Source: a virus. Taken from it: a DNA stretch of 64,000 nucleotides. The position numbers and the translations under genes are program-made. The notes below the pieces were generated by a model. That model had not been told where the DNA came from. It worked only from the letters and a program-made list of their open reading frames with translations, and did no database searches. Below, in pieces: positions 2,494 to 61,351 of the stretch (the stretch's first letter is position 1; each line of letters begins with the position of its first letter). Location of the stretch: positions 1 to 64,000 of IMG/VR virus record IMGVR_UViG_3300025133_000029. One strand, written 5' to 3'.

Positions 2494-2510
2494 TCTTTAG
2501 AGTCTAAAGA
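2494..2510. repeat. 17-bp dispersed palindrome, copy 1
   Basis: TCTTTAGAGTCTAAAGA just after tRNA-Leu. Confidence 0.95.
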
Positions 2511-2596
2511 TTTTTCTTATTATTGACCCTTCTAGGAAAAGGATTGGACTCCAAAGAATTTTTTCTTGCGTATCTCTATTCATATTCTCGATAAGC

Positions 2597-2633
2597 ATGG
2601 CCCTGTACTTTTATGTGCGGGGCCATTTTTTTT
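2597..2633 (+). terminator. intrinsic terminator-like hairpin
   Basis: ATGGCCCTGTAC-TTTTAT-GTGCGGGGCCAT followed by a T run. Confidence 0.55.
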
Positions 2634-2653
2634 GGCAAATAGGAGGAGAGTGA

Positions 2654-4609
2654 ATGGTACAACAAGTCGTTCCGGATATGGAGCAAAGATTGGAGAGTCT
2701 TGGTCCTGCAGAGAGGATCTTGAATCACATGTTGGAGTATGTGGATCACCTTTTCCACAATCGTATTGGTATGGTTGTGGAGGATGCCAGAACCCGAATT
2801 GGCGTTCGGTGGCATCACGTCTCATACGAAGAAAAAGATGGACAGAAGGAGGTCATTCGCCTCGACAAAGTTGGAAAGAAGACAACGCGAACCCCTGTGG
2901 GTATTTGGGGTGAAGACGATCTTATTCGAAAAGATGGTGTTGTCGTGGGCCGTTATCAGCCTGCGGGAATCTTCAAAGAGGTCGCGGTTTACATCTATCG
3001 AAACATCGCAGAGATTTGGGCGATGGATCAAGACTTCGTGGCACGCTGGGCTTCGTATGTGTTTTCGCAAGATCACCGTGATATGAAGGTGATTGTTGCA
3101 GCATTTATGTTGGTTCAGTCAGATCGTAGAGGAGATCCTATCCGGAGTGAAGAAACGGGCGAGATTCTTTTCTACGATGAAGACTATCGCGATATTGGTG
3201 AGGCGATGTGCCTTATTCGGCGTCGGGGTTCTGACTTGGGGCCTCGCGAGATTGAACGGATGTTTGATGTTTTGCGGCTTCCTGCAATCGCGGCGATTAA
3301 CCGGGAATTGGGTTTCACTTCTTCTCCCACAAGAAAGGCAAAGGGTCGCCTACCTTCGGTCGTTCGCAGATGGCTTGGGTTTAGAGAGAGAAATCGTCCT
3401 CTCTTGGATGGGATTGTCCGGGCAAGCATGAAGAGAACGGTGTGGCGTTTGTGTCAATACTCTAACTACAAACCTGCGGGTGAAGAATTCTTCCAGGTTC
3501 TGGGCTACAAGCAGAAGCAACGGGACGACGGTCGAAGAAAGATAGCTCTTGATATCGAGATGCCGCAGGCAGAGTCGTGGGAGGGTTTGTCGGAGAGTGA
3601 CATCTGCCAGAAGATATCGGATGAGCGTCTTTCCTTGAAGTATGTGGTAGGGAAGCTTCCATCTTCTGTGGGTATGACGCCAGCAGTTGTTGCAGCATCC
3701 ATGATGCATGGCGGAATGTCGGCAAAAGAAATTCTCATCGCTTCTCCCACTCTTGAGGCTTTGGGACTCCTGGATGTTCCAGAGATCAAGGCAAAGCATG
3801 CAGAGGCGTTGGCGCAGGTGGCCAAGAGAGCCGAGGACCAACGTGCAGCAAATATTGCGATGCGTATGCGCAAAAAAGAGAACGTGCAAGCTTTGGAGCA
3901 AGTGAGCGAAGCAGTTGTGGCGAAGAAGGTTGAAAAATCTTTGGAAGACTTCATGCTTTATCTTGTCATCGACAGGTCTATTTCAATGCGAGGTTCCTTG
4001 GAGAGGGGTAAACAAATGCTGCTCCAGATGCTTCCTGGCATTTTGCAGGTGGGAATGGATAAAATCAAAGTTTCCACATTCAATACAGACGGGAAGGAGA
4101 TTAGGTTCCGCCATGCTTCTGCAGAGGGGGTTGAGCATGCTTTTCGGAGTGAAAAGGCAAGTGGAGGTACTGCTTATGCAGAGGGCGTTCGGGTTCTCAA
4201 TGGGTATCCTCCCAAAGATCACGAAGAATCCATTATCTTCTTTGTTGGTGATCAGGAGGACAGAAACACAGACGGTCTTGTTCGGGCCATTAATCTTTCG
4301 GGACTGCGCCCTGCAGCGTTTGGTTTGATTGAAGTTCTGAGTCCCACACAAATGAGAGATACGAGGCGTCCACGGATTGTGGAGGCAACGGCTGCTCGTT
4401 TGGGTATTCCGTGTTTCATGATTGAAGAAGACACCTTCAGTGATCCCTATGCGCTTCCTCGGACGTTACAACGTTTGATCGAGTCGACTCCGGTTACGGA
4501 ACAAGTCACAGCGAGTCGTGCTTCGGTTGGTAGGGGACGTCGGAAGTCTTTGATTGAGAAAATTTTAGAGACAGATCTTCTTCGAAAGCCTGGATGGGCG
4601 ATGGGATAG
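2654..4609 (+). CDS. TROVE/Ro60-like helical protein with C-terminal vWA domain
   Basis: AGGAGGAG RBS; MIDAS motif DRSIS...GGT...VGD. N-terminal segments DQDFVARWASY, RLCQYSNYKP and ESWEGLS resemble TROVE blocks. The vWA call is firm; the TROVE call is inferred. Confidence 0.7.
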   Translation: MVQQVVPDMEQRLESLGPAERILNHMLEYVDHLFHNRIGMVVEDARTRIGVRWHHVSYEEKDGQKEVIRLDKVGKKTTRTPVGIWGEDDLIRKDGVVVGRYQPAGIFKEVAVYIYRNIAEIWAMDQDFVARWASYVFSQDHRDMKVIVAAFMLVQSDRRGDPIRSEETGEILFYDEDYRDIGEAMCLIRRRGSDLGPREIERMFDVLRLPAIAAINRELGFTSSPTRKAKGRLPSVVRRWLGFRERNRPLLDGIVRASMKRTVWRLCQYSNYKPAGEEFFQVLGYKQKQRDDGRRKIALDIEMPQAESWEGLSESDICQKISDERLSLKYVVGKLPSSVGMTPAVVAASMMHGGMSAKEILIASPTLEALGLLDVPEIKAKHAEALAQVAKRAEDQRAANIAMRMRKKENVQALEQVSEAVVAKKVEKSLEDFMLYLVIDRSISMRGSLERGKQMLLQMLPGILQVGMDKIKVSTFNTDGKEIRFRHASAEGVEHAFRSEKASGGTAYAEGVRVLNGYPPKDHEESIIFFVGDQEDRNTDGLVRAINLSGLRPAAFGLIEVLSPTQMRDTRRPRIVEATAARLGIPCFMIEEDTFSDPYALPRTLQRLIESTPVTEQVTASRASVGRGRRKSLIEKILETDLLRKPGWAMG

Positions 4610-4633
4610 TTTCTGTGTCGATAGGGGGGTGTT

Positions 4634-4670
4634 ATAAAGAGAGTGACTTGCTCCAAGTCACTCTCTTTAT
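4634..4670. terminator. perfect 17-bp hairpin downstream of the vWA gene
   Basis: ATAAAGAGAGTGACTTG-CTC-CAAGTCACTCTCTTTAT. Confidence 0.65.
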
Positions 4671-4688
4671 GTTTTTGAAGGAGTTTTT

Positions 4689-5390
4689 ATGAAAACGAAG
4701 AATATTGGTCGTGCAAAGAAATGGTCTCGTGTACATGTGGTCGTTTTGGTTGTGGGAGTAGCACTGTCAGTCTTGCTGATAGGTGTGTCATCAATTCTTT
4801 GGTTGAAAGTAAAAAAAGTGGCTTGGGGTATTTCGTTGCTTTTGACTGGAGGGTTCACAATGGGAATGTCTATTTATGGATATTTTCAATTACGGGAAAT
4901 GTATAATTGGAGTGAGTTGTATTGGAATACGAAGGTACCATCGTATAAAAGAAAAGGTACGGGATGGAAGAAGCTTTTGACGCATTGGTATGGACTTTTG
5001 GGTTTTGTGTGGTCTCTGCCAGTGTCTTTGCCATATGCCCTATATGTTTTCTTTTTTGTTTTATTGGGACAATATAGGTTTGTAAGAAGATACGGTTGGA
5101 CGCTAGAATTTGAAACGGTGTACAATAGCTGGGTACACAAGAAATATTGGGAAGGGAAGTGGTCTGGAGCCAATGGTGGGGCTATAACGGTGTATAGTCA
5201 TTTGTATGTGAATAATGAAGATACACAGGACCATGAACGACGACACGCTTGGCAGGTTTTTTGTTTTGGTTTCTATGGGGTTTTTATTTATGCGATCCAT
5301 TCTATTTATTTATATGCATCGGGAAAAGATGGATACAGGGATGTCTTTTTAGAAGAAGAGGCTCGCAGAGCGGAACATTTAGATCACTAG
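4689..5390 (+). CDS. membrane protein with HExxH motif (putative zinc peptidase)
   Basis: Several hydrophobic segments; DHERRHAWQ and a downstream LEEEAR glutamate. Confidence 0.55.
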   Translation: MKTKNIGRAKKWSRVHVVVLVVGVALSVLLIGVSSILWLKVKKVAWGISLLLTGGFTMGMSIYGYFQLREMYNWSELYWNTKVPSYKRKGTGWKKLLTHWYGLLGFVWSLPVSLPYALYVFFFVLLGQYRFVRRYGWTLEFETVYNSWVHKKYWEGKWSGANGGAITVYSHLYVNNEDTQDHERRHAWQVFCFGFYGVFIYAIHSIYLYASGKDGYRDVFLEEEARRAEHLDH

Positions 5391-5433
5391 AAAGTTGCGA
5401 TGGATTGTGCTTTCTTACCTGACAGGAGTCGAT

Positions 5434-6402
5434 ATGGTTTGGCAGGCATTATTGAAACCAGAGGTGGGGCAAGAACGTTTTGTGGCTCCTTGGTTTGGGC
5501 AGAAACAAATTTTATCACCAAAGGGCAGATGTTTTTCTCTAAAGGGAAGGCGTCATCGGGAGCATGGATGGTATTTTTTTGAAATCACTAAGCCCAAGAT
5601 AGTGAGGTGTGTGTTGGGCGAGGAGGCGTCTGCACCAGATGGTTGGGGGGAGAGCGAAAGAAGGGTCCAGGGATACGCTGTAGGGGATAGGTTGATTCTG
5701 GATAGTATTGGCTTTGTAAATGATCCTTCTAAAATCATTGAGCATTCGAGGTCGGTTTATTTTTTGGATCCGGGTTTAGATCGTTTTTCCAGAGTATCTG
5801 CAGTGGAATACGAGAGCGGAGATTTGTTATTTTATCAGCAAGAGTTTCCTTTGGGTCCTGAGTCTTTGGCATTGGATGCTTTTTTGGATGGAAGAGAAGA
5901 TTTGAGTGGGATAAAAGAAGTTACTCCTGCATTGCATTTTTCTTTTCTGTTTGAGCGGTGGGTTCAGGAGGAGCAGAGGGCAAGGATTCGAATTCTAGAG
6001 GAACATCGTCTAGAGCAAGAGCGCCTTTTGCGTGAAGCGGAGATGAGGGCGGAGATAGAGCGCTCAGTGGGCGATGGGGCGTCTAGAAGGGCGATGGCCT
6101 TGGTAGATTTTGAGGCGGCAGCAGGGGCGGCTTTGCGGCTTTCTGGGGCAGAACTGTTAGATGTGAGAGATGGCTATCGGGGGGAGAAAACAATTCGTTT
6201 TCGTTATAGGGAGAGGCGCTTTTGTTCGGTTATCAACGGTACTACTTTGGAAGTTATAGATTCTGGCATTTGTTTGGTGGGGAATGATCGATTATTTACG
6301 TTAGAAAGCCTTCCCAGTGTTATTGGAATGGCTATGGATGAAGGAGTTCTTCACGTTTTTCGTCGGGTAGATGATTATTATGGATATGGCGATGATGATT
6401 AG
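5434..6402 (+). CDS. hypothetical protein, coiled coil plus C-terminal DSGICL motif (possible E2-like)
   Basis: AGGAG RBS before ATG 5434; central EEQRAR...EIER coiled coil; IDSGICL resembles the E2 G-x-I-C-L active site. Confidence 0.45.
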   Translation: MVWQALLKPEVGQERFVAPWFGQKQILSPKGRCFSLKGRRHREHGWYFFEITKPKIVRCVLGEEASAPDGWGESERRVQGYAVGDRLILDSIGFVNDPSKIIEHSRSVYFLDPGLDRFSRVSAVEYESGDLLFYQQEFPLGPESLALDAFLDGREDLSGIKEVTPALHFSFLFERWVQEEQRARIRILEEHRLEQERLLREAEMRAEIERSVGDGASRRAMALVDFEAAAGAALRLSGAELLDVRDGYRGEKTIRFRYRERRFCSVINGTTLEVIDSGICLVGNDRLFTLESLPSVIGMAMDEGVLHVFRRVDDYYGYGDDD

Positions 6403-6454
6403 AGAATAAGTGGGAGTTATTGTTTCTTTTTTCTTTTACCTAAAAATCAAAAAA

Positions 6455-6471
6455 TCTTTAGAGTCTAAAGA
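6455..6471. repeat. 17-bp dispersed palindrome, copy 2
   Basis: TCTTTAGAGTCTAAAGA with A6/T6 extended arms. Confidence 0.95.
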
Positions 6472-6490
6472 TTTTTTGCAAGGAATAGTC

Positions 6491-6982
6491 ATGTCATTTT
6501 TAGAAACTGCGGTTGTTATTGGCAAAAATGGGGATCCCCTCTATTGGCATGAACCTTTGGGGAGGACTTCCGTCTATATCCCCGATTCCCAAAATTTGTG
6601 GGATGTTCTTTGGGAAAACAGGGACGATCTTTTGGGTGTTGCACACACACATCCAGGGAATGGGAAGCCAGTTCCTTCTCCAATAGATTTGGACACATTC
6701 TATGGGTGTGAACTAGGTCTAGGCTTCGGGCTGGCATGGTGGATAGCAACAGAGGATGAATTTCAAGAATTTAGACTTGTTCATTTTGATAGGAAGGTGG
6801 TTTTTCCGGGGTTGGATGAGTCTAAAGCAGAAAAATTTATTTGTTCGCCCACATCATGGATGGATTCTTCTGGTCTTTGTTATTCTACTTCGTTGTTTGA
6901 ACTGTGTAAATTGGGGCCTGATAAGCGGGTACCTGATTGGGTACATGAATTGCGTAGCAGGTCTGGCTACGAAGGAGATTAA
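6491..6982 (+). CDS. JAB/MPN+ (JAMM) metallopeptidase
   Basis: N-terminal E (LET) plus LGVAHTHPGNGKPVPSPID, a JAMM-type HxH...SxxD motif. Confidence 0.85.
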   Translation: MSFLETAVVIGKNGDPLYWHEPLGRTSVYIPDSQNLWDVLWENRDDLLGVAHTHPGNGKPVPSPIDLDTFYGCELGLGFGLAWWIATEDEFQEFRLVHFDRKVVFPGLDESKAEKFICSPTSWMDSSGLCYSTSLFELCKLGPDKRVPDWVHELRSRSGYEGD

Positions 6983-6988
6983 AAAACG

Positions 6989-7282
6989 ATGACAACAGCA
7001 TTGGTTACTACGATTCGAGATGATCAAGCAAAATTGAACATCACATGGGAAGGGCAAAACGGAGAACTTCCTGACGCGGTCCCTGCAAGCTCGAGCGACG
7101 AAGAGGTCAAAAGGTTCGCAGAGGAAGCCGTGCGAGGGGGAGACGTTCCGGGTATTTCGGCAGATCCCAATGCGGACTTTTCGAGCTTTGTCGTTCGTCG
7201 GTATGAACCGGAGGCGAGGGTTCCATATCTTCGGTTTTTCTTGCAACCCAAAACTCAGTTTGGGATTGCTCCAAAATGGTAG
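6989..7282 (+). CDS. small ubiquitin-like (beta-grasp) protein candidate
   Basis: 97 aa; strand-strand-helix-strand pattern; ends LRFFLQPKTQFG-IAPKW; directly after JAB and upstream of E1. Confidence 0.6.
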   Translation: MTTALVTTIRDDQAKLNITWEGQNGELPDAVPASSSDEEVKRFAEEAVRGGDVPGISADPNADFSSFVVRRYEPEARVPYLRFFLQPKTQFGIAPKW

Positions 7283-8142
7283 CGCATCCAGGAGAAATGA
7301 CGGCAAGGGATCGCTTCTACAGTGATAGGTTAGAGAAAACCTTTTTCATTATAGAAGCGACTTCCTTTGAGCAGCACACTCTTTGGCAGAACCACCACTA
7401 CTACCCAACTCTCTCGCTAGATTATAGAGGATTTCGAGAGGAGTCTGTTTCGTGGGATAGTCTGTCTGGGATAATTATAACGATAGGGCACTTGGGGGAA
7501 AAGCTAGTTGCTATTTCTTTATCGTGGGTTATGGTTAATGGAGTGCCTGTTCTGTTTTGGTGTCCTAGCTCGAAAGTGGTTTGCTATGACTTGATAGAGA
7601 AGTGGTTCTCTGAGAATTGTGTACCAGAACGATGGGGTAATGGTACGCGAAGGTCGTATACGGATGCGAACAACTTCAGTCATTGTAGAATTGCAATTAA
7701 AGAATATAAGGATGGCGAACACAGCAATCCTTATAAATATCCATTTGACTTTCCGATACATTCACCACCAAAGGAAATCGATCTGAAAGATTTGGAAGCT
7801 TTTGATTTAGCAAAGCGACAGAAGGATCTGGATGTTTGTTGCAGATCTTGTGGTCGAAGTGATATCCGCCTCTATCGAAGCTATGGGGGATTTCGGCGAA
7901 CCGAAGAAGATAGATGCAACGAGCATCTGGAGGAGGTCTGTTCGGGTGAGGATTTTAGGGGGTGGTATGTTCCTCTTATAGTCGATGATGCGGGGAATGC
8001 ATGGGGATATACTTCAGTTCCGCAAAATGCTATAGATGCTTTCTATGGTTTAGAAGATTTTACACAGGAAAAACCATATTGGTGTGGTCCTGGTGAAAGA
8101 TCTGATGGGATTTCGGGTTGGTCTAATCGGTCATTGGCTTAG
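7276..8142 (+). CDS. hypothetical protein
   Basis: Overlapping ORF in the operon; CxxC in the second half. Confidence 0.6.
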   Translation: MVAHPGEMTARDRFYSDRLEKTFFIIEATSFEQHTLWQNHHYYPTLSLDYRGFREESVSWDSLSGIIITIGHLGEKLVAISLSWVMVNGVPVLFWCPSSKVVCYDLIEKWFSENCVPERWGNGTRRSYTDANNFSHCRIAIKEYKDGEHSNPYKYPFDFPIHSPPKEIDLKDLEAFDLAKRQKDLDVCCRSCGRSDIRLYRSYGGFRRTEEDRCNEHLEEVCSGEDFRGWYVPLIVDDAGNAWGYTSVPQNAIDAFYGLEDFTQEKPYWCGPGERSDGISGWSNRSLA

Positions 8143-8146
8143 GGAT

Positions 8147-8707
8147 ATGATTATTGTAGATTCCTTACAAAATGATCCGACAAATGTTATTTTTTTAGAC
8201 ATGGATGGCGTTCTCAATAATAGAGATTTTTTAACAGAATCATTTCTAAGATGGAAGAGAGATAAAAAGAAGGGAATTGTTAAAGACTGGGGAATTGGTG
8301 AGGGGTTTTTGTATTTGATTTGCGAACAACTGGTAGAGCGACTGAATCGAATAACATTGGCCACAGATGCAAAGTTAGTAATGTCTTCTTCTTGGCGTTA
8401 TTCGTGGTATGAAGACTTTGAGGGACTTCAAGATTTATTCAAAAATGCAGGGATTCAAGGTGAGTTAATAGGGATGACGCCTTTGGGAGTGTCTGGAGGG
8501 GATTCGCGAGGAAAACAGATACAACGATGGTTGGATGAAAATCTTAAAAATTCTAAAGGGTGGCAAATAAATAGATTTATCATTTTGGATGATAGTTCTG
8601 ATATGGAGCATTTGATGTCGTTCTTGGTGAGGACAAGCTTGCATGGCCCCATGGGAGGTTTGCAAGACAAACATGTAAAAAAAGCAATCTCTCAATTATT
8701 AGGATAA
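8147..8707 (+). CDS. HAD-superfamily phosphatase (Swiss-army-knife RNA-repair-like HAD)
   Basis: FLDMDGVLN, MSSSWR, RGKQIQRWL and IILDD motifs. Confidence 0.8.
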   Translation: MIIVDSLQNDPTNVIFLDMDGVLNNRDFLTESFLRWKRDKKKGIVKDWGIGEGFLYLICEQLVERLNRITLATDAKLVMSSSWRYSWYEDFEGLQDLFKNAGIQGELIGMTPLGVSGGDSRGKQIQRWLDENLKNSKGWQINRFIILDDSSDMEHLMSFLVRTSLHGPMGGLQDKHVKKAISQLLG

Positions 8708-8744
8708 TAAGAATATTGTTTTTTTTGAATCCAATGGAGTTGTT

Positions 8745-9371: not shown

Positions 9372-9383
9372 GGGGAAAGAAAC

Positions 9384-10020: not shown

Positions 10021-10075
10021 TAATAATGGGAAGGGGAGATCTTTAGAGTCTAAAGATCTCCCCTTCCCATTATTA
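10021..10075. repeat. 55-bp perfect palindrome centred on 17-bp repeat copy 3 (10040-10056)
   Basis: TAATAATGGGAAGGGGAGATCTTTAGA-G-TCTAAAGATCTCCCCTTCCCATTATTA. Confidence 0.97.
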
Positions 10076-13416: not shown

Positions 13417-14142
13417 ATGGGATCTCGAAGTGCGTTGGGTGATGCTCCGGTGCCTCTTTCCTTAGTTTTGCGCGAGAAACAAGAGAAAAGAAAAAAACGA
13501 AGAGATAGAAGACGTCGGACAAGTAGCGCTCTATCATCCACAGATAAAGAAGAAATTATAAGGGGTGTATGTAGTGGGCGTTTTGCTCCTGTGGGGGGTA
13601 TAAAACAACAAACAGCACGCGCCGCTGATGAGATGGCCTCTCTGTGTGCAGAACTACATGCAGAATATTATGGGAGTAGGGTGTCTGATTGGCAATCACG
13701 ATCGCAGCAGAATAAAGGCCACTTGGGATGTTGCAGCAGAGCAGCGGCTCAGGCGGATATGTTAGGAGTGTGTTATCGAGATTACTTACGAGCGCAATTT
13801 TATTGGATCAATGATTATTTTTCTCGACCACCGAGATATTCGGAAATAGCAAGTCCCGGAGCTATAGTTCGTTACGAGAAGTGGAAGATTGTCAAAGAGG
13901 AGGGACAGGCACCACCTATGGTTGTTCATCCCGCGATTATGGGAAATATTGATCCAGGAGATCAGTCAGACAGTGATGTCATTGAATATGAAAAAATTGT
14001 ATTGGATCGCATGGTTCGTCAGTGGGGTAGTGAGGAGGAGGTCTGGAGAATGTTTGGTTCTCCTGAAGATACAGAAGTATTTTCAAGTGTTTTTAAGAAA
14101 ACCAGAGAAGTTTGGCGTTCCATGTATGGTAAAGATCTTTAG
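13417..14142 (+). CDS. hypothetical protein upstream of helicase
   Basis: ORF whose TAG stop lies inside the palindrome. Confidence 0.6.
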   Translation: MGSRSALGDAPVPLSLVLREKQEKRKKRRDRRRRTSSALSSTDKEEIIRGVCSGRFAPVGGIKQQTARAADEMASLCAELHAEYYGSRVSDWQSRSQQNKGHLGCCSRAAAQADMLGVCYRDYLRAQFYWINDYFSRPPRYSEIASPGAIVRYEKWKIVKEEGQAPPMVVHPAIMGNIDPGDQSDSDVIEYEKIVLDRMVRQWGSEEEVWRMFGSPEDTEVFSSVFKKTREVWRSMYGKDL

Positions 14143-14152
14143 ACTCTAAAGA
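14136..14152. repeat. 17-bp dispersed palindrome, copy 4
   Basis: TCTTTAGACTCTAAAGA, arms extend to AAAGA/TCTTT. Confidence 0.95.
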
Positions 14153-17301: not shown

Positions 17302-17318
17302 TCTTTAGACTCTAAAGA
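17302..17318. repeat. 17-bp dispersed palindrome, copy 5
   Basis: TCTTTAGACTCTAAAGA, arms ATT/AAT. Confidence 0.95.
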
Positions 17319-22595: not shown

Positions 22596-22612
22596 TCTTT
22601 AGAGTCTAAAGA
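22596..22612. repeat. 17-bp dispersed palindrome, copy 6
   Basis: TCTTTAGAGTCTAAAGA, arms AGAAAA/TTTTCT, directly after a stop codon. Confidence 0.95.
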
Positions 22613-24407: not shown

Positions 24408-26478
24408 TGATTTGCGCCATAGTGTCTGGCATTTATTAGACGAAGATGTAACGATTCCAACTGAGAGTATTCTAAAAGGTGATTATCGTTTTGAAGGACT
24501 TCCCATTTTTTCTGAAAAATTTGAGCTTATTGATACTTGGGATGCATTCTTTGAAATACTCGCAGATTTGATGCGGGTGAAGATATTATCGGCGGATGTG
24601 GAGACCGATGGTCTTGGAAAATTAACGCATAGAATTATTGGATATTCATTTAGCTATAATATTAACTTTAGAGGGATGGATATTGAGAGCAGGGGTTGCT
24701 TGCGTAACGTGTATATTCCTGTAAGGCATAGAACGGGTGATAGATCTTTAGATCCTAAAGATGTTGCTTTTTATTTGGGCAAAGTTTTTTTAAGGAGTGA
24801 TGTCGTTTTTCTGTTTTGGAATGCACGATTTGATATGCACATGCTTTTCAATGAAGGGATGGGGTTGGGTGGTCTTGTTATTGATGGGATGATTTATAGA
24901 AAATTATTATTCCCCGAAGATAGAGCGGGATTGAAAAGAACGTCTGAGGATCTTGTAGAGAGTACTGCAGGTGAGTGGGATAGGTGTATTCGTGTGTTTA
25001 TTAGATCTCTTTGTGGGAAAAATGGTTGGAAAATACCGGGAAGGGGAGATCCTCTTGCACGTTCTCTTTACGATTACATTCCCACGCTATGGATGGCACA
25101 GTATGCCGGTAGAGACACATATTATACGTGGCTGTGTGTTGATTTATTATTGGCAATGATTCGCGATATCCCTGGACTTATGTCGATATCTGCAACCGAG
25201 CATTCTTTAATACTTCCTCTTTTTAGGATGGAGAGAAATGGTCTTCCTGTAGATCGTGTTGAGGTGGGCTCGAGTGTAGAGAGAGCATTCTCAATACAAA
25301 AAAAATTAGAGAGGTCTTTGGAGGAAGATTTTGGATTTTCTGGTAATTTGAGGAAGGACTCGGATGTTATTTCTTTTCTAAGAGACCAGGGAGCAATATT
25401 TACTCGAGCGACAAGAGGGACGAGACATCTCCCTCCAGAAAAGCAAAACATGTCGTTGGCGGGAGATGTTCTGCGAATGCAGGCGGTGGAAGGGGTTGTG
25501 GCATCGGGTTTGGTCTATCAATGGCGAACACTCTTCGACATTCTATCGAGGAACCTGCTGAAGTTATCGGAATATATAGAGGGAGATGGGTGTGTACACG
25601 CATCATTTATGCAATTGGGCGCAAAGTCGGGAAGAATGTCTGCTAATGCACCTAATGTGATGAACGTTCCGCAGAGGAATGAGTATGCGTCATTAGTGCG
25701 GACTTGTTATCGATTAAAAAGCAATGATTGGGAGTGGTGGTTTTTAGACCTGAATCAGATTGAGCTTCGGATTATTGCTCATTGCTCAAAAGATCCACAT
25801 TTATGCGATGCTTTTATCCGCGGAGAAGATCTGCATGTATTAACGGCTATAGATATTTTTGGTTTAGATGTGTGGGATCGAGGAACATTAGAAGAAAAGA
25901 GTCTCATGCGCTCTATAGCAAAAGAGGCGAATTTTGGAATAGTTTATGGTATTGGTGCGAAAGGCTTAGCGGACAACTTGTTTAAAAGAGGAATTCTTCG
26001 GTCTGTAGAAAGTTGCGAGGAGGTTATTTTCCGGTTTAAGTCGCAGCGTCCGAGATTAATGCAGTGGGTGAGTGAAGTGAAGGTTTTAGCTCACAGGCAA
26101 GGTTATATTGATAATCTGTACGGAAGAAGAAAAGATTGTCGGTTACTGAGTGACATGTCTGTTTCAAGATATGAAAGGGAAAAGCTGGAGCAATCCATAC
26201 CAAACTTTATGGGGCAGGGGACCGCTGCGGATTTCTTTAAGCGTTTTTGGATTTCATTTGAGGATGCGTTGTTTTCGAGGTTGGGCGCAGAATACAAATT
26301 TGTTAATTGGGTGCATGATGAGATTCAGGTCTTTATCAGGCCAACCGATCGAAACTTTATGATTGAAGAGTCTCAGAGAGTTTTAGATGAGGAGTCTGCA
26401 TGCTTTGATGTTCCAATTAGTTTAAATTATCAAAGAAGTTTAGGTAGTTGGGACGAAAAGGAAGAAATATCTTTATAA
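24364..26478 (+). CDS. polA: DNA polymerase family A with 3'-5' exonuclease (true start may be 24382 or 24400)
   Basis: DVET, NARFD and YAGRD exonuclease motifs; SGRMS, DLNQIELR, RSIAKEANFGIVYG and VHDEI polymerase motifs. Confidence 0.93.
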   Translation: MWVVQIMTPRILMNSDLRHSVWHLLDEDVTIPTESILKGDYRFEGLPIFSEKFELIDTWDAFFEILADLMRVKILSADVETDGLGKLTHRIIGYSFSYNINFRGMDIESRGCLRNVYIPVRHRTGDRSLDPKDVAFYLGKVFLRSDVVFLFWNARFDMHMLFNEGMGLGGLVIDGMIYRKLLFPEDRAGLKRTSEDLVESTAGEWDRCIRVFIRSLCGKNGWKIPGRGDPLARSLYDYIPTLWMAQYAGRDTYYTWLCVDLLLAMIRDIPGLMSISATEHSLILPLFRMERNGLPVDRVEVGSSVERAFSIQKKLERSLEEDFGFSGNLRKDSDVISFLRDQGAIFTRATRGTRHLPPEKQNMSLAGDVLRMQAVEGVVASGLVYQWRTLFDILSRNLLKLSEYIEGDGCVHASFMQLGAKSGRMSANAPNVMNVPQRNEYASLVRTCYRLKSNDWEWWFLDLNQIELRIIAHCSKDPHLCDAFIRGEDLHVLTAIDIFGLDVWDRGTLEEKSLMRSIAKEANFGIVYGIGAKGLADNLFKRGILRSVESCEEVIFRFKSQRPRLMQWVSEVKVLAHRQGYIDNLYGRRKDCRLLSDMSVSRYEREKLEQSIPNFMGQGTAADFFKRFWISFEDALFSRLGAEYKFVNWVHDEIQVFIRPTDRNFMIEESQRVLDEESACFDVPISLNYQRSLGSWDEKEEISL
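24745..24761. repeat. variant palindrome copy inside polA
   Basis: TCTTTAG-ATC-CTAAAGA, read as S-L-D-P-K-D. Confidence 0.6.
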
Positions 26479-26551: not shown

Positions 26552-26568
26552 TCTTTAGAGTCTAAAGA
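26552..26568. repeat. 17-bp dispersed palindrome, copy 7
   Basis: TCTTTAGAGTCTAAAGA. Confidence 0.95.
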
Positions 26569-29446: not shown

Positions 29447-29460
29447 AGGAGAATTTGAGC

Positions 29461-31969: not shown

Positions 31970-31978
31970 ATATGAAAA

Positions 31979-31995
31979 TCTTTAGACTCTAAAGA
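31979..31995. repeat. 17-bp dispersed palindrome, copy 8
   Basis: TCTTTAGACTCTAAAGA. Confidence 0.95.
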
Positions 31996-36880: not shown

Positions 36881-36897
36881 TCTTTAGAGTCTAAAGA
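36881..36897. repeat. 17-bp dispersed palindrome, copy 9
   Basis: TCTTTAGAGTCTAAAGA with A/T extended arms. Confidence 0.95.
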
Positions 36898-42107: not shown

Positions 42108-42772
42108 TGTTTACTCATGTTTTCTTTGAGCCTCCTGTAGCTTGGGGACGTCCGCAATACAACAGAAGTTTGGGTATTTTTTATCCCCATAAGCCGTCTC
42201 AGAAGTTTGGTGAGCGTTTAGCAGAAGATGTTCTTTCATCTTTTGATCCTTCAGAGATAGAGCTTCCTCATTTTGAAGCAGGGAGACCTTTGGGAATAGA
42301 TTTGGATTTTGTATTGCCTCGTCCAAAGTCACTTAGGAGAAAAAAAGACCAGGGTGGTTTAATTTGGTTTGGGAAATCCAAGAAAAATGACTTGGACAAC
42401 TTAATTAAAGCTGTGTGGGATGGCTTGTCTAAGGTTATGTGGGATGACGATGGCAGGTTGGTGCAGAGTCGTTCTCGTAAGTTTTATGCAGAGAAGTGGG
42501 GTGCCCCTCGAATTTGTATGCGTGTGTACTACATGAGAGAGGAGCCGGTATTCTTGTGTACTGATTATGGTTTCTCTGAAGGATCCTGGGATGAATCTTT
42601 AGACTCTAAAGATTTTCTAATGATTGATGAGCCTTGCGAACAAGGTAAAGAGAGTTTAGTATTATCTAGAAATGAGGATGGCCATCTAGTTATGCCTCCA
42701 AGAGATTCTAGAGAATATGATGAGCTTCTTTGGTCTTTTATGAGATCGAGGTCGGGAACATTAAATGATTAG
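42107..42772 (+). CDS. rusA: RusA-like Holliday junction resolvase
   Basis: GRP; DLDNLIKAVWDGL...WDDDGRLV. Confidence 0.85.
   Translation: MFTHVFFEPPVAWGRPQYNRSLGIFYPHKPSQKFGERLAEDVLSSFDPSEIELPHFEAGRPLGIDLDFVLPRPKSLRRKKDQGGLIWFGKSKKNDLDNLIKAVWDGLSKVMWDDDGRLVQSRSRKFYAEKWGAPRICMRVYYMREEPVFLCTDYGFSEGSWDESLDSKDFLMIDEPCEQGKESLVLSRNEDGHLVMPPRDSREYDELLWSFMRSRSGTLND
42596..42612. repeat. 17-bp dispersed palindrome, copy 10 (inside rusA)
   Basis: TCTTTAGACTCTAAAGA, read as S-L-D-S-K-D. Confidence 0.95.
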
Positions 42773-44710: not shown

Positions 44711-44727
44711 TCTTTAGACTCTAAAGA
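44711..44727. repeat. 17-bp dispersed palindrome, copy 11
   Basis: TCTTTAGACTCTAAAGA after the terminase stop. Confidence 0.95.
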
Positions 44728-45694: not shown

Positions 45695-46327
45695 ATGGCA
45701 AAGAAAATAAAACGTATTGCACTTATAGGTAATAGCATTCTTGAGGAGGAGGATTGGCAGGCATCTTTGGTTAGTCAGGTAGGGGATTTATTTTCAAAGT
45801 TTTGTGATTCTGAAAATATGGCTCTTGATTTCCCTTGTAGTGTTTCGCCTGCATACGTTCCATTTTTTCCGCGCGGAATTGCTTATGTTGATCATATCAA
45901 AAGAGGGCAGGAGCTTGTTATTGCATCGGCATCTGATGTTACGGTTGTTCTCAACTTAGGTCATTCCTTTGATGGTGGAGGTCCAGAAGATCATCATTTG
46001 GAGGCTTTAATTCAAGCTTCGAATCTTTTGATAATATGGACCCCTACATCAGTGCACGTTGATGAGGTTTTACCGAATGATGTGGTGGGGAAAAATGCGG
46101 GGGTAATACCAGTAAGTGGCTCTGTTGGGGTTCTTGCGGCGGTTGTGTTGTATATTTGCTTAGAAAATGATTGGTCACTACAATTGAATACGCCAATCTC
46201 ATTGGCCTTGGGTGAATTTAATGACGATTCTGATTCTTTAGATTCTAAAGAAGAGGTTGAATTAGAAATAGAAGTTGAAATTATTGAAAAGTTAAAAGTT
46301 CCCGAGCCTGAAAAGGGTCTTCAGTAG
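45695..46327 (+). CDS. hypothetical protein
   Basis: 210-aa ORF. Confidence 0.6.
   Translation: MAKKIKRIALIGNSILEEEDWQASLVSQVGDLFSKFCDSENMALDFPCSVSPAYVPFFPRGIAYVDHIKRGQELVIASASDVTVVLNLGHSFDGGGPEDHHLEALIQASNLLIIWTPTSVHVDEVLPNDVVGKNAGVIPVSGSVGVLAAVVLYICLENDWSLQLNTPISLALGEFNDDSDSLDSKEEVELEIEVEIIEKLKVPEPEKGLQ
46235..46251. repeat. variant palindrome copy (central T) inside a CDS
   Basis: TCTTTAGATTCTAAAGA, read as S-L-D-S-K-E. Confidence 0.85.
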
Positions 46328-48892: not shown

Positions 48893-48909
48893 ACTTTAGA
48901 CTCTAAAGT
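48893..48909. repeat. variant palindrome copy with compensatory end changes
   Basis: (AA)ACTTTAGACTCTAAAGT(TT). Confidence 0.9.
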
Positions 48910-49436: not shown

Positions 49437-51055
49437 TGTCAAAAAGTGTTTGGTTCGTTCGTCGTTGTCGGGGTGAGAGGGCGGGGCTTTGTCCTTCGCG
49501 GTTTATTAAGGGTCGGCATATAATTGCTTCTGATGGGATGGAGGCAATAAAGTTGTATCTATTTCACTATAATGGTTGGGTAGAGAGTTCACTTGGTGCA
49601 GTAGAGCATTCTCATGTTTTTGAAAACTATACATCGGGAATTCGTTGGGACATTAAGGTTTACTCAGAGGGTCTGAAAAGAGAACCCCTCCTCCTCCTGG
49701 CGCAGTGTATGTTTTCTTTTGATGGGAAAAAGAAAGAGAGAGTTTTTCTGTGGCCGAGTGATGATAGTGCCGATATGGCAACGACTCCTGGGCTACATGT
49801 TTCCTTTCCTTCTATTTCTTCAGATATTGAAGAGATGGTTGCTTCGCTAGGAGTTGGATTTTATTCTGGTAAGGTTTATTCAGAAAATCCGATGTCGTAT
49901 AAGCACGATGTTGTTTTGGCGGAAAGTGAAGTCGGCGTTGCGAAATTGCTATACGTAGATGCTACAGAAGTTCAAGATTTGGATCCGAGTTTGCTTGAGG
50001 AGCGATCGGGAGAGTACTCGAGTAGGGGATCTGTTTTGCAGATAGATGTTTTTCCCCATCAAAATGTTTATACTTTTGCGCAAGTTTCTGCAGATCAACA
50101 TTCTCTTCGGAGTTCAGTGTTTGAGGATCTGGGGGTTCCCCCGCTGGGGAGTGCGGCGTTTACGGAGGGTGTTGCAGAGGGGATGTATCCAAAGCAGCCT
50201 CTTTACTCTGGGGAGAGTATGCTAATCAAACGATCGGATGAGGTTCCAACAGAGCATCGTGTCTGGCGTTTTGGTGATAAGGATCGAGATAAGGAGATAT
50301 TTACAAGAGGAGGTTTGCGGGTTGTCGATGTCAGTGTCGGGGAGAAGCCTTGCTATCTATGGAAGGTTGTCCTAGATGTGTTGTGGGCAGGGGAGAAGAA
50401 GTCATACGCGGCAGTACTACTTGCGGGGAGTGGTGAAGATGCAGTTGTTTCTTATTTTACTCACTTCTTTAAACATCTCCCCTTTCGCTCGGAAACTCCT
50501 TTTGTTTTAGAGGATTTGGTTACATCGCAAGTATTATGTCTTAATCGATCGAATAGTTCTTTCTGCATCGAAGCATCGAGAATTACTCATGGAAAGGGTG
50601 AGTGGGGTGAGGCGCCTGCAGACTTTGCTTGTGAGGGGGAGAGTGGGATTTCTTTGCTAGAAGAGGCAAGGGATCGACAGGATGGTGGAGACATGGGTCT
50701 GTATATTACCGTTTTGTATACCACGACCAATAGGAGAAAGGGCTACATCCGAAGTTATGCAAAGTCACCCATACAGGCGGCAGCGTTATCGTTGGTTCAT
50801 TGGACAGCAGTCCTCCCCAAGATTGGTGACGGAGCTTTGTATAACATGGGCGATCTGCAGACATCTTTACATGGGAAGGATTGCGACATCGTTCCTGCTG
50901 GGAAGATGTATGATGTGTTGGCAGAGTACACTGGCCTGCCAACACGACATGATTGCATTGAGTGTGAAGGAGATATCTTGGCAGGGCGGGTAGGGGAGCC
51001 GGAGAAGGATGGGGAAGAGTCTGTGGAATCTGTGAAAAATGGAGAAAATCTTTAG
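49436..51055 (+). CDS. hypothetical protein
   Basis: 539-aa ORF whose stop lies in the palindrome. Confidence 0.65.
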   Translation: MSKSVWFVRRCRGERAGLCPSRFIKGRHIIASDGMEAIKLYLFHYNGWVESSLGAVEHSHVFENYTSGIRWDIKVYSEGLKREPLLLLAQCMFSFDGKKKERVFLWPSDDSADMATTPGLHVSFPSISSDIEEMVASLGVGFYSGKVYSENPMSYKHDVVLAESEVGVAKLLYVDATEVQDLDPSLLEERSGEYSSRGSVLQIDVFPHQNVYTFAQVSADQHSLRSSVFEDLGVPPLGSAAFTEGVAEGMYPKQPLYSGESMLIKRSDEVPTEHRVWRFGDKDRDKEIFTRGGLRVVDVSVGEKPCYLWKVVLDVLWAGEKKSYAAVLLAGSGEDAVVSYFTHFFKHLPFRSETPFVLEDLVTSQVLCLNRSNSSFCIEASRITHGKGEWGEAPADFACEGESGISLLEEARDRQDGGDMGLYITVLYTTTNRRKGYIRSYAKSPIQAAALSLVHWTAVLPKIGDGALYNMGDLQTSLHGKDCDIVPAGKMYDVLAEYTGLPTRHDCIECEGDILAGRVGEPEKDGEESVESVKNGENL

Positions 51056-51065
51056 ACTCTAAAGA
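51049..51065. repeat. 17-bp dispersed palindrome, copy 12
   Basis: TCTTTAGACTCTAAAGA between convergent genes. Confidence 0.95.
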
Positions 51066-54311: not shown

Positions 54312-54328
54312 TCTTTAGACTCTAAAGA
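54312..54328. repeat. 17-bp dispersed palindrome, copy 13
   Basis: TCTTTAGACTCTAAAGA. Confidence 0.95.
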
Positions 54329-58811: not shown

Positions 58812-59660
58812 ATGTCTGAAACAAAAAATATCCTATCTCCACCTATGGATGATGCGGAAATCGCATCTCTTTCTCATGTTGAAGTGGAGGATACAATTCA
58901 ATTGCCAAAAACCCACGAGGGTTGGCTTAAGCGGTTTTTAGCTTATTTGAACATATTTGGATTCCTTAGAGTTTTCTTTGGTCAAACTCGAGATTCTACA
59001 AATCGACCCAATAATATTCTCATGTTGTTTTATGCAGCATGTCTTATACATGCGTCTGTTTTGGTTGGATCTGTGTACTTTAAGGGGGCAAGATATCATT
59101 TGGTCTTAGATTGTCCACCGGGGACAAAGCAAAACTACATAGGCAAGAAGATTTTAAAGAAATCTTTAGAGTCTAAAGAAAAGTCTTCCAAAAAGGGGTT
59201 GCGGGGAAAGATAAAAAGGGGGGCTAAGAGTTTAGCTAAGAGAATAAAAAATAGGTTGTCGAGGAAGAGGGTTCGTCGAACTTTTAATAATCCATCACCC
59301 ACCGCAGTTTCAAAAAAAGAAAAAATCATATGCGGTGGTTTAAAGATTACAATACATTTGACTTTGCAGCCGTCGCCTTCTTTGCCTGGGGCGGTGTACT
59401 GGACGTGTTTTTGGGCATTAGTTTTTATAGGAATGTTGTATATGGGAAGGCATCAGCAGACTCGGGATTGGTCTGTTGATCTAATGTATGCGTGGAAGGG
59501 AGGAAGTAGAAGAGATGGTTTGGATTCGAGAACTGCATCTATTTCTGTTTCTGGAGAAGGAGTGAGTTTTGATACAGGAGATGCAGGGGGTACAGTGACT
59601 GCCCCTCCAAGTGTAGATCCTCGGGGAACTATGGGAGATAAGAAAGGACATAGTCACTGA
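58812..59660 (+). CDS. membrane protein with basic loop
   Basis: Two hydrophobic segments flanking a Lys/Arg-rich region. Confidence 0.6.
   Translation: MSETKNILSPPMDDAEIASLSHVEVEDTIQLPKTHEGWLKRFLAYLNIFGFLRVFFGQTRDSTNRPNNILMLFYAACLIHASVLVGSVYFKGARYHLVLDCPPGTKQNYIGKKILKKSLESKEKSSKKGLRGKIKRGAKSLAKRIKNRLSRKRVRRTFNNPSPTAVSKKEKIICGGLKITIHLTLQPSPSLPGAVYWTCFWALVFIGMLYMGRHQQTRDWSVDLMYAWKGGSRRDGLDSRTASISVSGEGVSFDTGDAGGTVTAPPSVDPRGTMGDKKGHSH
59163..59179. repeat. 17-bp dispersed palindrome, copy 14 (inside a CDS)
   Basis: TCTTTAGAGTCTAAAGA, read as S-L-E-S-K-E. Confidence 0.95.
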
Positions 59661-59691
59661 TCGGTATAAATGTCGGGGGAGAATTGAAGAT

Positions 59692-60564
59692 TTGGAGGTT
59701 TCTATGACTATTGATCGCTATTCTTTTGTTGCAAGCTCGAGGAGAAGAAATAGAGAAGTTGAAGAGAAAGAAGTGGATTCGAGTTCTGAAGCACAACATC
59801 CTCTTTTTGGTGAAAGCAATTCGGAGTGTGTAGAGGACAGTGGGAGTATTGCGGAGTCTCGAGTGCAGGAGTTGCGGGTTAGGGAAATCTTCCCTTCTCT
59901 CAATTACTTTTTTAGTTTTTTCAAATCAATGCGAAGCAATAGGGAGTATCGTGTTCTTGTCCCAGTTGATTCTTTTTGTAACTGTATAAGGAATAAGAAC
60001 AGTGATGAGTTGTGGAATTCTCTTGTTTCGTTTGGTGGTGAGCGGGTTTTGTATGCTTCTGTAGTTAGCTCCCCTAAAGGTCTAAGATCTTTTTACTCAT
60101 GTTCTTATTTAGAGTGTGTTCTTGAGAAGCATATGGAATCGTTTATAGAAAATGAAACTGGAGAAGATTATCCTTCCCCAAATAATGATTTTCTTTCCAG
60201 AACCATTTCTGATGTTTTAGAAGTTTGGTCTTGCCATGGTTATAAGGGTTTCGTAAGGGAGGTTAGAAAGCATCTACGTGTTTGGAAGTACTTTTGTTTT
60301 CTATTTTCTCTTTGGGATAATATTGTAAAACAGGGACCATCTAATATTTCTGTACAATTAATGCAAAGTATTCGAGATGATATGTCGAGAGTTTTTTGCG
60401 ACAAGGCTAGTTCTCCATTATGGTCTCAGGAAATATGGAGAGATGAGTTTCGAGAGATGGGACAAGAAATTTTTGCTCGTATGGAATTAGAGTCTCCTGA
60501 TAAGGTTTCTGTTATCCGAAGAATGTCATCTTCCTGGGATCGTGTGATATCAAGATCGTCTTAA
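59692..60564 (+). CDS. hypothetical protein
   Basis: 290-aa ORF. Confidence 0.6.
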   Translation: MEVSMTIDRYSFVASSRRRNREVEEKEVDSSSEAQHPLFGESNSECVEDSGSIAESRVQELRVREIFPSLNYFFSFFKSMRSNREYRVLVPVDSFCNCIRNKNSDELWNSLVSFGGERVLYASVVSSPKGLRSFYSCSYLECVLEKHMESFIENETGEDYPSPNNDFLSRTISDVLEVWSCHGYKGFVREVRKHLRVWKYFCFLFSLWDNIVKQGPSNISVQLMQSIRDDMSRVFCDKASSPLWSQEIWRDEFREMGQEIFARMELESPDKVSVIRRMSSSWDRVISRSS

Positions 60565-60588
60565 TCTTTTGATGGGGTAGTTTTTTTT

Positions 60589-61332
60589 ATGATAGCAGTC
60601 GACGGAAGAGAAATAGTTTATCTGGGGATTCCATACTCGCATAAGGATGCGGAAGTGCGGCGAAAGAGGTTTGAGATCTCTTGTCTTGTTGCGAGTATTC
60701 TTATGAAGAATGATGTTGTTGTATATGCGCCAATTACTCATTGTTATCCTATCGCGGTAAAACAAGGTCTTCCTCATGGTTGGGACTTTTGGGAGAAGTT
60801 TGACACCGCATACCTGCGCTGCAGTAAAGCTTTATATGTTGTAACCATGGAAGGTTGGGAGAGTTCGAAAGGGCTAAACGCAGAGATTCAAATAGCAGAA
60901 AACCTGGGGATACCTGTTTTTTATTTGTCTTTGTATGAGAAGGTGAATATCAAAGTAGAAGAATATATGAATACAGGCGTGGAGGTTGCGGAGTTTGCTG
61001 AAACTCCAAAAGAGACAACTGTATTAGATCCGCCTAGACTTCCTTTCTTTTTAATGCCTCAGTATAGAGAAGCTGGGTGTTTGGATGTGGTTAATGTTTA
61101 CAACCGTGTGGATGGGGATCTGGAGATGGTATATCAATTCGCAGCACCACCAACAACACAGGTGGAATTTGAGGTTATTAATCATCGTACGTATGGGGTG
61201 TTGGTTAAATACAAGGATCAGATTATTTATGTTTCTTATAGGGATTGTTCTTCTTTGCGAGACATTGAAGAAGGTGGGATTTATGATGGATCTATGAATG
61301 AGGACTTTTTTGTTCGTATGGGAGAGAGGTAG
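60589..61332 (+). CDS. DUF1937 / nucleoside deoxyribosyltransferase-like protein
   Basis: YLGIPYSH, YAPITH, D...L..C and GWESSKGLNAEI. Confidence 0.75.
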   Translation: MIAVDGREIVYLGIPYSHKDAEVRRKRFEISCLVASILMKNDVVVYAPITHCYPIAVKQGLPHGWDFWEKFDTAYLRCSKALYVVTMEGWESSKGLNAEIQIAENLGIPVFYLSLYEKVNIKVEEYMNTGVEVAEFAETPKETTVLDPPRLPFFLMPQYREAGCLDVVNVYNRVDGDLEMVYQFAAPPTTQVEFEVINHRTYGVLVKYKDQIIYVSYRDCSSLRDIEEGGIYDGSMNEDFFVRMGER

Positions 61333-61334
61333 AA

Positions 61335-61351
61335 TCTTTAGAGTCTAAAGA
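61335..61351. repeat. 17-bp dispersed palindrome, copy 15
   Basis: TCTTTAGAGTCTAAAGA, arms AGAA/TTCT. Confidence 0.95.

Follow-up and report, generated by a model that had tools for sequence, protein, structure and literature searches.

The window (the whole stretch of DNA analysed here, 64,000 nucleotides) comes from an uncultured, lytic-looking marine giant phage. No close phage record was matched in GenBank by megablast with 20 kb of sequence, and the nearest phage isolates are only ~30% identical in TerL. The window contains 15 exact copies and 3 variants of a 17-letter palindrome, TCTTTAGA-S-TCTAAAGA, with a 13-bp core TTTAGA-N-TCTAAA. The sites and the features directly associated with them are as follows (no strand is assigned to the sites):

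2494..2510, exact site, centre G; intergenic, 4 nt past tRNA-Leu (2404-2489) and 143 nt ahead of gene 2654
6455..6471, exact site, centre G, flanked by A6/T6; gene 5434-6402 precedes it and gene 6491-6982 follows
10040..10056, exact site, centre G; intergenic, ahead of a UvsW-like helicase
~10021-10075, perfect palindrome of ~55 bp with site 10040 as its core
14136..14152, exact site, centre C; its TAG is the stop codon of gene 13417-14142, and dnaB follows 23 nt downstream
17302..17318, exact site, centre C; after dnaB (end 17247) and before a probable ATG near 17345
22596..22612, exact site, centre G; 4 nt past the stop of a CobT-like gene
24745..24761, variant site (TCTTTAGATCCTAAAGA); within the DNA polymerase A gene, read S-L-D-P-K
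26552..26568, exact site, centre G; intergenic, past polA
~31941-31970, canonical GC-rich terminator, separate from site 31979 and ~10 nt upstream of it
31979..31995, exact site, centre C; gene 32019 lies 23 nt downstream
36881..36897, exact site, centre G; 8 nt past the stop codon at 36872
42596..42612, exact site, centre C; within the C-terminal extension of a RusA-like ORF, read S-L-D-S-K
44711..44727, exact site, centre C; 7 nt past the terL stop
46235..46251, variant site, centre T; within ORF 45695-46327, read S-L-D-S-K
48893..48909, variant site, A...T at positions +-8; 1 nt past the stop codon at 48891
51049..51065, exact site, centre C; located where 49436-51055 (+) and 51059-52237 (-) converge, overlapping both 3' ends
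54312..54328, exact site, centre C; 3 nt past the stop codon at 54308
59163..59179, exact site, centre G; within ORF 58812-59660, read S-L-E-S-K
61335..61351, exact site, centre G; 2 nt past the stop codon at 61332

All 15 exact copies reported in the preliminary description were recovered (0 expected in 100 shuffles), and its three variants (24745, 46235 and 48893) proved to be the sole additional matches in the window at up to 3 mismatches. The degenerate copy that it had placed at 2541 matches at 12 of 17 positions, which is not significant. The scan of the whole contig (161 kb), which had been proposed as a check, revealed 44 exact copies, against 0 expected, and 54 core copies. A 66-kb contig, probably the missing tail module, carries 16 more sites, giving ~70 sites over ~227 kb of phage sequence. 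The full form in the phage is RRRA-TCTTTAGA-S-TCTAAAGA-TYYY. Isolated half-sites are absent (52 of 57 TCTTTAGA half-sites lie inside palindromic sites). A scan of 596 Gb of cellular genomes resulted in 66 matches, all singletons (chance estimate ~69), and no host or prophage array of the palindrome was found there. In a metagenome scan with a 15-mer, nearly all of the matches listed were chance singletons, L065 being the only true relative among them.

The sites follow each other at ~3 kb intervals and are spaced far more evenly than random. In the window, the gaps measure 1524 to 5715 bp, in line with the earlier estimate of about 1.5-5.7 kb without clustering. In the suggested comparison with a Poisson null, the gaps had a coefficient of variation of 0.39 (window) and 0.50 (whole contig). 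Placing sites uniformly gave 0.92-0.97, and drawing them at random from the real intergenic junctions gave 0.83-0.90 (p 5e-5 to 4e-4 for the window, <5e-5 for the contig). No gap exceeds 5.7 kb, whereas ~13 kb was expected for the largest; without site 59163, the local gap would be 7.0 kb. The location of the copies at gene junctions, on or just after stop codons, was also borne out: 44 of the 54 sites are intergenic, the non-coding share of the contig being only ~14%, and many overlap a stop codon or start 1-8 nt past one. Ten sites lie inside ORFs as called, or ~9 allowing for the uncertain ORF start at 17302, where the site was counted as inside the ORF by a crude gene call. Of the tandem intergenic regions, 23% contain a site, compared with 22% of the convergent and 36% of the divergent ones; 8 sites lie in divergent promoter regions. 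The phage's GTAAATGC box follows 8-21 nt after the end of approximately 8 sites, and 2 sites overlap the start site; a GTAAATG promoter-like box is located at 22748, 136 nt downstream of site 22596. The first 84 kb yielded no second conserved intergenic motif, such as a promoter.

The centre of the site is G in 25 copies, C in 23, A in 3 and T in 3, irrespective of gene strand; with all genes read in one direction, this even balance of G and C means that a G:C pair is wanted there in either orientation. Restriction avoidance via the GANTC centre was considered and rejected, as GANTC is not depleted (794 observed vs 597 expected). The flanks, said to extend the dyad, do pair beyond the 17-mer (mean 3.0 bp vs 1.75 bp with flanks swapped between sites), but the excess complementarity at each flank position is small, and their pattern is that of an upstream purine run mirrored by a downstream pyrimidine run (RRRA...TYYY). 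Similarly, the compensatory outer change at 48893 is present as claimed, but it is a single case, and the outer-position changes at 92305 and 112767 of the contig are uncompensated. In the L005/L174 lineage, the dyad is broken (non-complementary) at position +-7 in 5 of 11 sites. The case for selection on symmetry itself is weak.

These observations bear on what kind of element the palindrome is. An RNA hairpin formed in polycistronic transcripts, with a role in leaky termination, RNase processing or 3'-end stabilisation, would fit the copies just past stop codons, the stem flanked by an A-run and a T-run, and the folds of -12 to -43 kcal/mol at some copies. However, the core hairpin is weak (-7 to -13 kcal/mol, and at several sites not significant by z), G:U pairs are no more favoured than A:C, and the 15 invariant bases far exceed what a hairpin needs. 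Furthermore, the phage has canonical GC-rich terminators separate from the sites, e.g. the one 10 nt upstream of site 31979, and the sites themselves differ from intrinsic terminators in having 2 G-C pairs in the stem and in lying also in divergent regions and ORFs. The balance of G and C at the centre despite one-way transcription and the broken dyad in the relative lineage also speak against an RNA element, which we consider very improbable. Taken together, the symmetry, the lack of orientation preference, the separate terminators and the unconstrained hairpin-breaking position in the relative argue for duplex recognition, and the palindromes therefore look like double-stranded DNA sites, not RNA hairpins. 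A cruciform or single-strand DNA hairpin for replication priming or recombination-dependent replication, to which the preliminary description also gave room, stands no better. It would agree with the enzymes encoded by the phage (RecA, UvsW, SbcC, RusA, and a DnaB helicase with a Toprim protein), with an even spacing of ~3 kb near the scale of Okazaki fragments, with a palindrome functional on both strands and with flank pairing slightly above the permuted control, but 17 bp is short for extrusion, the dyad is broken in relatives, we know of no primase or resolvase that requires such a site, and the association with a ParB clade described below would be left unexplained. Identical, mostly intergenic copies could also be left by a selfish short palindromic repeat (REP/MITE-like) spreading through non-coding DNA. 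The over-dispersed rather than clustered spacing, the syntenic positions in a relative at ~50% protein identity, the lack of flanking terminal repeats or target duplications and the absence of isolated half-sites make this origin barely credible.

Among the options named at the outset, that of genome-wide, parS-like cis sites for a dimeric phage protein is the best supported. The binders proposed with it fared less well: the proteins at 22873 ('sigma-like') and 51059 have no Pfam or PHROG match, and nothing supports HU at 46423, HU being a non-specific binder. Outside the window, at 92.5 kb of the contig (92526-93884), lies the gene of the likely reader, an orphan ParB-family protein with a ParB/Noc/KorB fold. 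This protein carries the Pfam domains ParB_N and HTH_ParB in the order typical of the ParB/Noc/KorB family. In a phmmer search against PDB, it matched Noc, Spo0J and ParB (6e-8 to 1e-6), to which it is closer than to KorB (E 0.12). The AF2 model of its core (pLDDT 80-93) had exclusively ParB, Noc or KorB structures, including CTP-bound ParB, as top Foldseek matches, with TMt 0.64 for the KorB-KorA-DNA complex 8qa9. CTP box III (ENLQRxDL) is intact (ENLQRxDLSPxE, AENLQRKDLSPFE). Box II (GERRxRA) is degenerate, with SGFSRFK in the phage and SGFRRxxA in the clade, and CTP clamping by the phage protein is therefore uncertain. The disordered N-terminal tail is acidic and then lysine-rich. A site is located 210 bp upstream of the phage's own parB. 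No ParA (AAA_31) match was found in G000, G001 or the L005 contig (incomplete genome), with controls matching in 14 of 14 cases; with dispersed sites instead of a clustered parS centromere, the arrangement differs from ParABS. The ParB_N-methyltransferase fusion, in turn, belongs to the beta-class adenine methylases and most resembles DpnA-type enzymes.

Conservation in relatives, another of the checks proposed, was observed. In L005 (TerL 56% identical), the 13-bp core is present 6 times in 21.7 kb, with different outer bases and at syntenic places kept despite ~50% protein identity: site 44711 has its counterpart directly past terL (11685), and site 42596 corresponds to site 9311 of L005. 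A single-sequence ParB search of IMG/VR found nothing, and a word-index protein search with ParB returned the protein itself and three remote ParBs only; the ParB clade was found by an exhaustive HMMER search of IMG/VR. Five lineages with ParB homologues each possess their own dispersed TTAG-N3-CTAA palindrome, and a sixth uses N4. These palindromes are often directly upstream of parB. Thus, TTTAG(A/G)-N-TCTAAA occurs five times in 16 kb with P0010 (35% identical, L174-176), GTTAGG-W-CCTAAC four times in 19 kb with P0006 (37%, L170), two of them upstream of parB, and ATTAG-N3-CTAAT four times with P0019 (L207), whereas P0012 and P0011 have ATTAGT-NN-ACTAAT beside parB. For P0013, the predicted ATTAGT-type site failed to appear and the site is TTCAAACGTTTGAA; for P0014, a repeated palindrome is absent from the 9-kb contig. 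Any palindrome at >=3 copies was found in 0 of 36 control loci and in 0 of 24 IMG/VR loci of distant ParBs (22-38% identity), so the array is a trait of the close clade and not general to phage ParBs. Site and ParB clade travel together, in an association inflated by shared ancestry since the lineages are related phages.

The same duplex sites could be read by another protein. An HTH_23/Terminase_5-like protein (91502-92212) adjoins parB and might be a KorA-like repressor or a small terminase, with ParB unrelated or a partner only. ParB proteins are established readers of 13-16-bp palindromes of TTAG-N3-CTAA-like architecture, whereas to our knowledge homeodomain-like HTH_23 domains have no dispersed palindromic targets. 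L170 and L174-176 have the HTH protein (30-32% identity) conserved along with ParB, an HTH_23-type gene is found near parB in L207, and a palindrome lies 44-244 bp upstream of the HTH gene in G0, L174 and L170; co-occurrence therefore cannot separate the two proteins. Moreover, the KorA operator of RK2 has the same TTTAGC half-site as that of KorB (PMC11790492). However, no HTH homologue is detectable in the short contigs L177, L178 and L179, where parB is flanked by the palindromes, and we regard the HTH protein, or another dimer, as an unlikely reader.

We thus favour (probability about 0.6) the interpretation that the palindromes are duplex docking sites, read by a dimer of the phage's orphan ParB/KorB-family protein and kept evenly spread. 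The dimer would read the core as double-stranded DNA, and selection would keep ~70 sites so that no stretch lies more than ~3 kb from one. ParB would nucleate at each site, like KorB on RK2 or Noc on the Bacillus chromosome, and would probably spread or slide from there as a CTP-gated clamp, aided by its lysine-rich tails; the whole phage chromosome could in this way be marked or coated, and a site abutting a promoter would double as an operator. The purpose could be silencing or timing on a global scale, compaction, or the marking of self DNA. The spacing constraint leads to the prediction that the clamp travels ~3 kb or less. In a more far-reaching and rather doubtful version, ParB would coat the entire ~230 kb chromosome as a CTP-gated clamp with histone-like basic tails, forming a virus-encoded chromatin or 'self-marking' layer. 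Such a coat would compact the genome, time transcription globally, or shield DNA from host or phage nucleases, and would be conserved with co-evolving sites across the marine phage clade. Many sites hug stop codons, which would also fit a 3'-end RNA element and speaks against ParB docking. ParB-type CTP clamps are known as centromere binders (ParABS), as a division-site regulator (Noc) and as a plasmid-wide repressor (KorB); docking by the phage ParB, if true, would add the organisation or regulation of whole viral genomes to the roles of this switch.

Several known systems resemble the array. Cluster A mycobacteriophages have stoperators (L5 gp71), asymmetric sites that follow the direction of transcription and are recognised by the immunity repressor. 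Like them, the array consists of numerous short sites scattered over small intergenic gaps of a phage and putatively has a single phage protein as reader, but its sites are perfect palindromes without orientation, and the stoperator reading put forward earlier is not supported. Cluster O mycobacteriophages possess a 17-bp dyad repeat TGTTCGGNNNCCGAACA with a 3-nt centre and no known function or reader (34 copies in Corndog; PMC4351075). The two have in common a 17-bp dyad, tens of copies throughout the genome, invariant arms, similar positions in related phages and no meaningful orientation to transcription; sequence and spacer differ, and even spacing or a link to ParB is not mentioned for Cluster O in the passages considered. 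Noc of Bacillus subtilis, an orphan ParB paralogue without ParA, has ~70 NBS sites over the chromosome. Here the likeness consists in an orphan ParB, tens of palindromic sites over a large DNA, and the position of Noc among the best PDB sequence and fold matches. In contrast to the phage protein with its acidic and then lysine-rich tail, Noc has an N-terminal membrane-targeting amphipathic helix; its site sequence is unrelated, and the phage replicon is a virus.

The IncP-1 plasmid RK2 (60 kb) encodes KorB and has 12 OB operators TTTAGCSGCTAAA (PMC11790492). The operator, TTTAGCGGCTAAA, is a 13-bp palindrome TTTAGC-S-GCTAAA (PMC11790492), and the phage core is likewise a 13-bp odd palindrome in the TTAG-N3-CTAA frame, identical to OB in 5 of 6 bases per half-site although not in the whole sequence. 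RK2 has 12 operators as against ~70 sites, spaced at 3 kb, in the phage. In the incomplete phage genome, neither a ParA/IncC partner was found nor a KorA identified, and the phage protein differs from KorB in the degenerate GERR box and the added lysine-rich and acidic tails. On RK2, the co-repressors KorA and TrbA lock the KorB clamp at promoters; the HTH neighbour of the phage parB is a candidate co-repressor. The arrangement of the sites is known from RK2, and no description of such ParB-type site arrays in phages was found in the literature searched. In both replicons a ParB-family protein is encoded, a site lies upstream of its own gene, and copies are dispersed over the whole replicon, some by promoters and others far from any. 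If the proposed pairing holds, the co-evolving sites and proteins of the six lineages would represent a natural specificity series around the KorB operator frame.

The palindrome TCTTTAGA-S-TCTAAAGA occurs in the window in 15 exact copies, whose starts (2494, 6455, 10040, 14136, 17302, 22596, 26552, 31979, 36881, 42596, 44711, 51049, 54312, 59163 and 61335) agree with the preliminary description, and none would be expected in shuffled sequence. The variants reported at 24745, 46235 and 48893 are the sole additions in the window when three mismatches are tolerated. The window is the opening 64 kb of an IMG/VR phage contig of 161,002 bp, in which the 17-mer has 44 exact copies; its 13-bp core, TTTAGA-N-TCTAAA, is present 54 times when up to one mismatch is tolerated, and isolated half-sites are essentially missing. 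Cellular genomes totalling 596 Gb contain the 17-mer 66 times, each time as a single copy; as chance alone would give ~69 (our own estimate), the array belongs to the phage.

The even dispersal claimed for the sites held when compared with random placement. The coefficient of variation (CV) of the gaps is 0.50 in the contig and 0.39 in the window (0.97 and 0.92, respectively, for uniform placement; 0.90 and 0.83 for random draws from the real intergenic junctions), with spacing P-values from <5e-5 up to 4e-4, and the widest gap is 5.7 kb (~13 kb expected). Ten sites are ORF-internal as called, although site 17302 is probably intergenic, as the start of the surrounding ORF is uncertain. The four in-ORF sites of the window that were translated all use the single frame that the motif leaves open (S-L-E/D-S/P-K), and for most of them, loss of the site would leave a gap of 7-8 kb. 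Two doublets are present in the contig, 102297/102354 (57 bp centre-to-centre, identical to 8445/8502 in L170, a locus of a distant lineage) and 142154/142261 (107 bp apart). A perfect ~55-bp palindrome (window 10021-10075; -43 kcal/mol as RNA) is centred on site 10040, and at site 66825, past the window end, the dyad is extended by 14 bp per side.

Genes and gene groups of the contig referred to in the text.
Window 33-2489: array of ten tRNA genes (Met, Ile, Asp, Ala, Thr, Pro, Arg, Asn, Met, Leu) at the contig start
Window 2654-9983: vWA protein and neighbours, weak VWA_2 match only
Window 14176-17247: DnaB-like helicase, intein with LAGLIDADG domain
Window 29455-31539: RecA, intein with HNH domain
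Window 42107-42772: RusA-type Holliday-junction resolvase, ~85-aa C-terminal extension holding a palindrome copy
Contig 83739-85157 (minus strand; L159:388-1806): second ParB_N protein, fusion with a beta-class N6/N4 DNA methyltransferase (adenine methylase)
Contig 91502-92212 (minus strand; L027:7502-8212): HTH_23/Terminase_5-like protein, 236 aa, divergent from parB
Contig 92526-93884: ParB-family protein, 450 aa, ParB_N and HTH_ParB domains

Among the proteins encoded by the contig are DnaB, RecA, PolA, a UvsW-like helicase, CobT, SbcC, RusA and HU, and also a gpA-type TerL, a head protease and a major head protein. The first palindrome lies 4 nt past the last tRNA of the array. Another contig, IMGVR_UViG_3300006923_000020 (65.9 kb; loci L036-L039), carries 16 palindromes that conform to the same extended consensus and whose gaps have a CV of 0.44; it has no DNA or protein similarity to the phage contig, the motif alone being in common. 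Among its genes are those for a 1288-aa portal carrying large insertions, a sheath-like protein of 956 aa and baseplate proteins, plus a 2655-aa ORF, and the contig's near-identical sibling is found in metagenome 3300002518, which also contains the ParB contig. Therefore, it is probably the missing structural/tail module of the phage genome, which would then probably possess ~70 sites over at least 227 kb.

A scan of related phages recovered the motif, in line with the genome-wide cis system proposed from the window. L005, a locus of a relative (TerL 56% identical, other proteins ~40-60% identical to those of the window), holds the 13-bp core six times within 21.7 kb; the copies are syntenic, among them one immediately past terL and one past the RusA homologue, and their outer bases are unlike those of this phage. 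The L005 counterpart of the site in the RusA extension appears to lie just past the gene end. In the locus L065, with 71% DNA identity around 105 kb, the site is retained. Such conservation leaves no room for a selfish repeat that spread recently.

The putative reader of the sites is the ParB-family protein. Its matches among PDB sequences are Noc, Spo0J and ParB; the predicted model has a confident core, and all its fold matches are ParB, Noc or KorB, including the KorB-KorA-DNA complex. The model shows disorder in both tails (lysine-rich N-terminal, acidic C-terminal). Of the CTP-binding boxes, box III (ENLQRxDLSPxE) is intact, whereas box II reads SGFSRFK instead of SGFRRxxA as in the clade. 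No ParA was found in the phage DNA examined, the contig being rated 68% complete (CheckV). A palindrome copy also lies within the 3' end of the ParB_N-methyltransferase gene, and the palindrome centre is GANTC. An exhaustive HMMER search revealed a small clade of ParB homologues, most of them with a palindrome of their own.

ParB homologues and palindromes at their loci.
P0010 (35% identical), L174-176, metagenome shared with L005: AAAA-S-TTTAG(A/G)-N-TCTAAA-S-TTTT, 5 in 16 kb
P0006 (37% identical), L170: GTTAGG-W-CCTAAC, 4 in 19 kb, two of them upstream of parB, 57 bp apart
P0019, L207: ATTAG-N3-CTAAT, 4 copies, one 71 bp upstream of parB
P0012 and P0011, L178 and L177: ATTAGT-NN-ACTAAT, flanking parB
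P0013, L179: TTCAAACGTTTGAA, 2 copies upstream of parB
P0014, L180 (9 kb): no repeated palindrome

For P0013, an ATTAGT-type site had been predicted, which was not borne out. A palindrome with at least three copies was present in none of 36 control loci and none of 24 loci of distant phage ParB proteins. The sites of this phage, L005/L174, L170 and L207 have the frame TTAG-N3-CTAA in common, which is also that of the operator of KorB, TTTAGCGGCTAAA (PMC11790492). Note that the ParB lineages share ancestry, and the association of site and protein is thus not fully independent.

The HTH_23/Terminase_5-like protein is still a competing candidate for the reader, or may act as a KorA-like partner: its gene adjoins parB, is co-conserved there in L170 and L174 and has a palindrome upstream, and an HTH_23-type gene is close to parB in L207 as well. 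It may also be a small terminase. As for the hairpin signals considered in the preliminary description, the aligned sites give the consensus RRRA-TCTTTAGA-S-TCTAAAGA-TYYY, in which a purine flank is mirrored by a pyrimidine flank and the centre base is G25/C23/A3/T3. The central G:C pair is wanted in both orientations even under one-way transcription (window genes are nearly all on the + strand, GC skew +0.25), which fits a dyad-symmetric duplex site and not an RNA loop. The flanks show a small excess of complementarity, with G:T no more favoured than A:C, and the core hairpin is weak. Distinct GC-rich terminators are present, one of them 10 nt upstream of site 31979, and the share of intergenic regions with a site is 23% for tandem, 22% for convergent and 36% for divergent ones. 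At position +-7, the sites of the L005/L174 lineage have G or C on each side, and just 6 of the 11 are complementary there, so there is no selection for hairpin integrity in that lineage.

Some of the sites are placed like operators. The element GTAAATGC, with TATA ~12 nt further along, forms a promoter-like family of ~47 copies, predominantly in contig 131000-161002 (window copies: 22748 and 37978), most of which precede short minus-strand cassettes followed by GCCCC/GGGGC terminators; some copies directly adjoin a palindrome. The distance from palindrome end to a downstream GTAAATGC box is 8, 11, 18 or 21 nt in about eight cases, and two further palindromes overlap the predicted start site, so ~10 sites have an operator-like position. 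The majority of sites are not close to a promoter that could be recognised, and the first 84 kb yielded no further intergenic motif.

In the papers searched on phage ParB, KorB and dispersed palindromes, no description of a phage-wide ParB site array was found. The nearest phage analogue in print is a 17-bp dyad repeat found in Cluster O mycobacteriophages, to which no function is assigned (PMC4351075). We rate the orphan ParB and its dispersed sites as a KorB/Noc-like network in which ParB would bind the palindromes; it would be scaled up to a giant phage with even spacing maintained.
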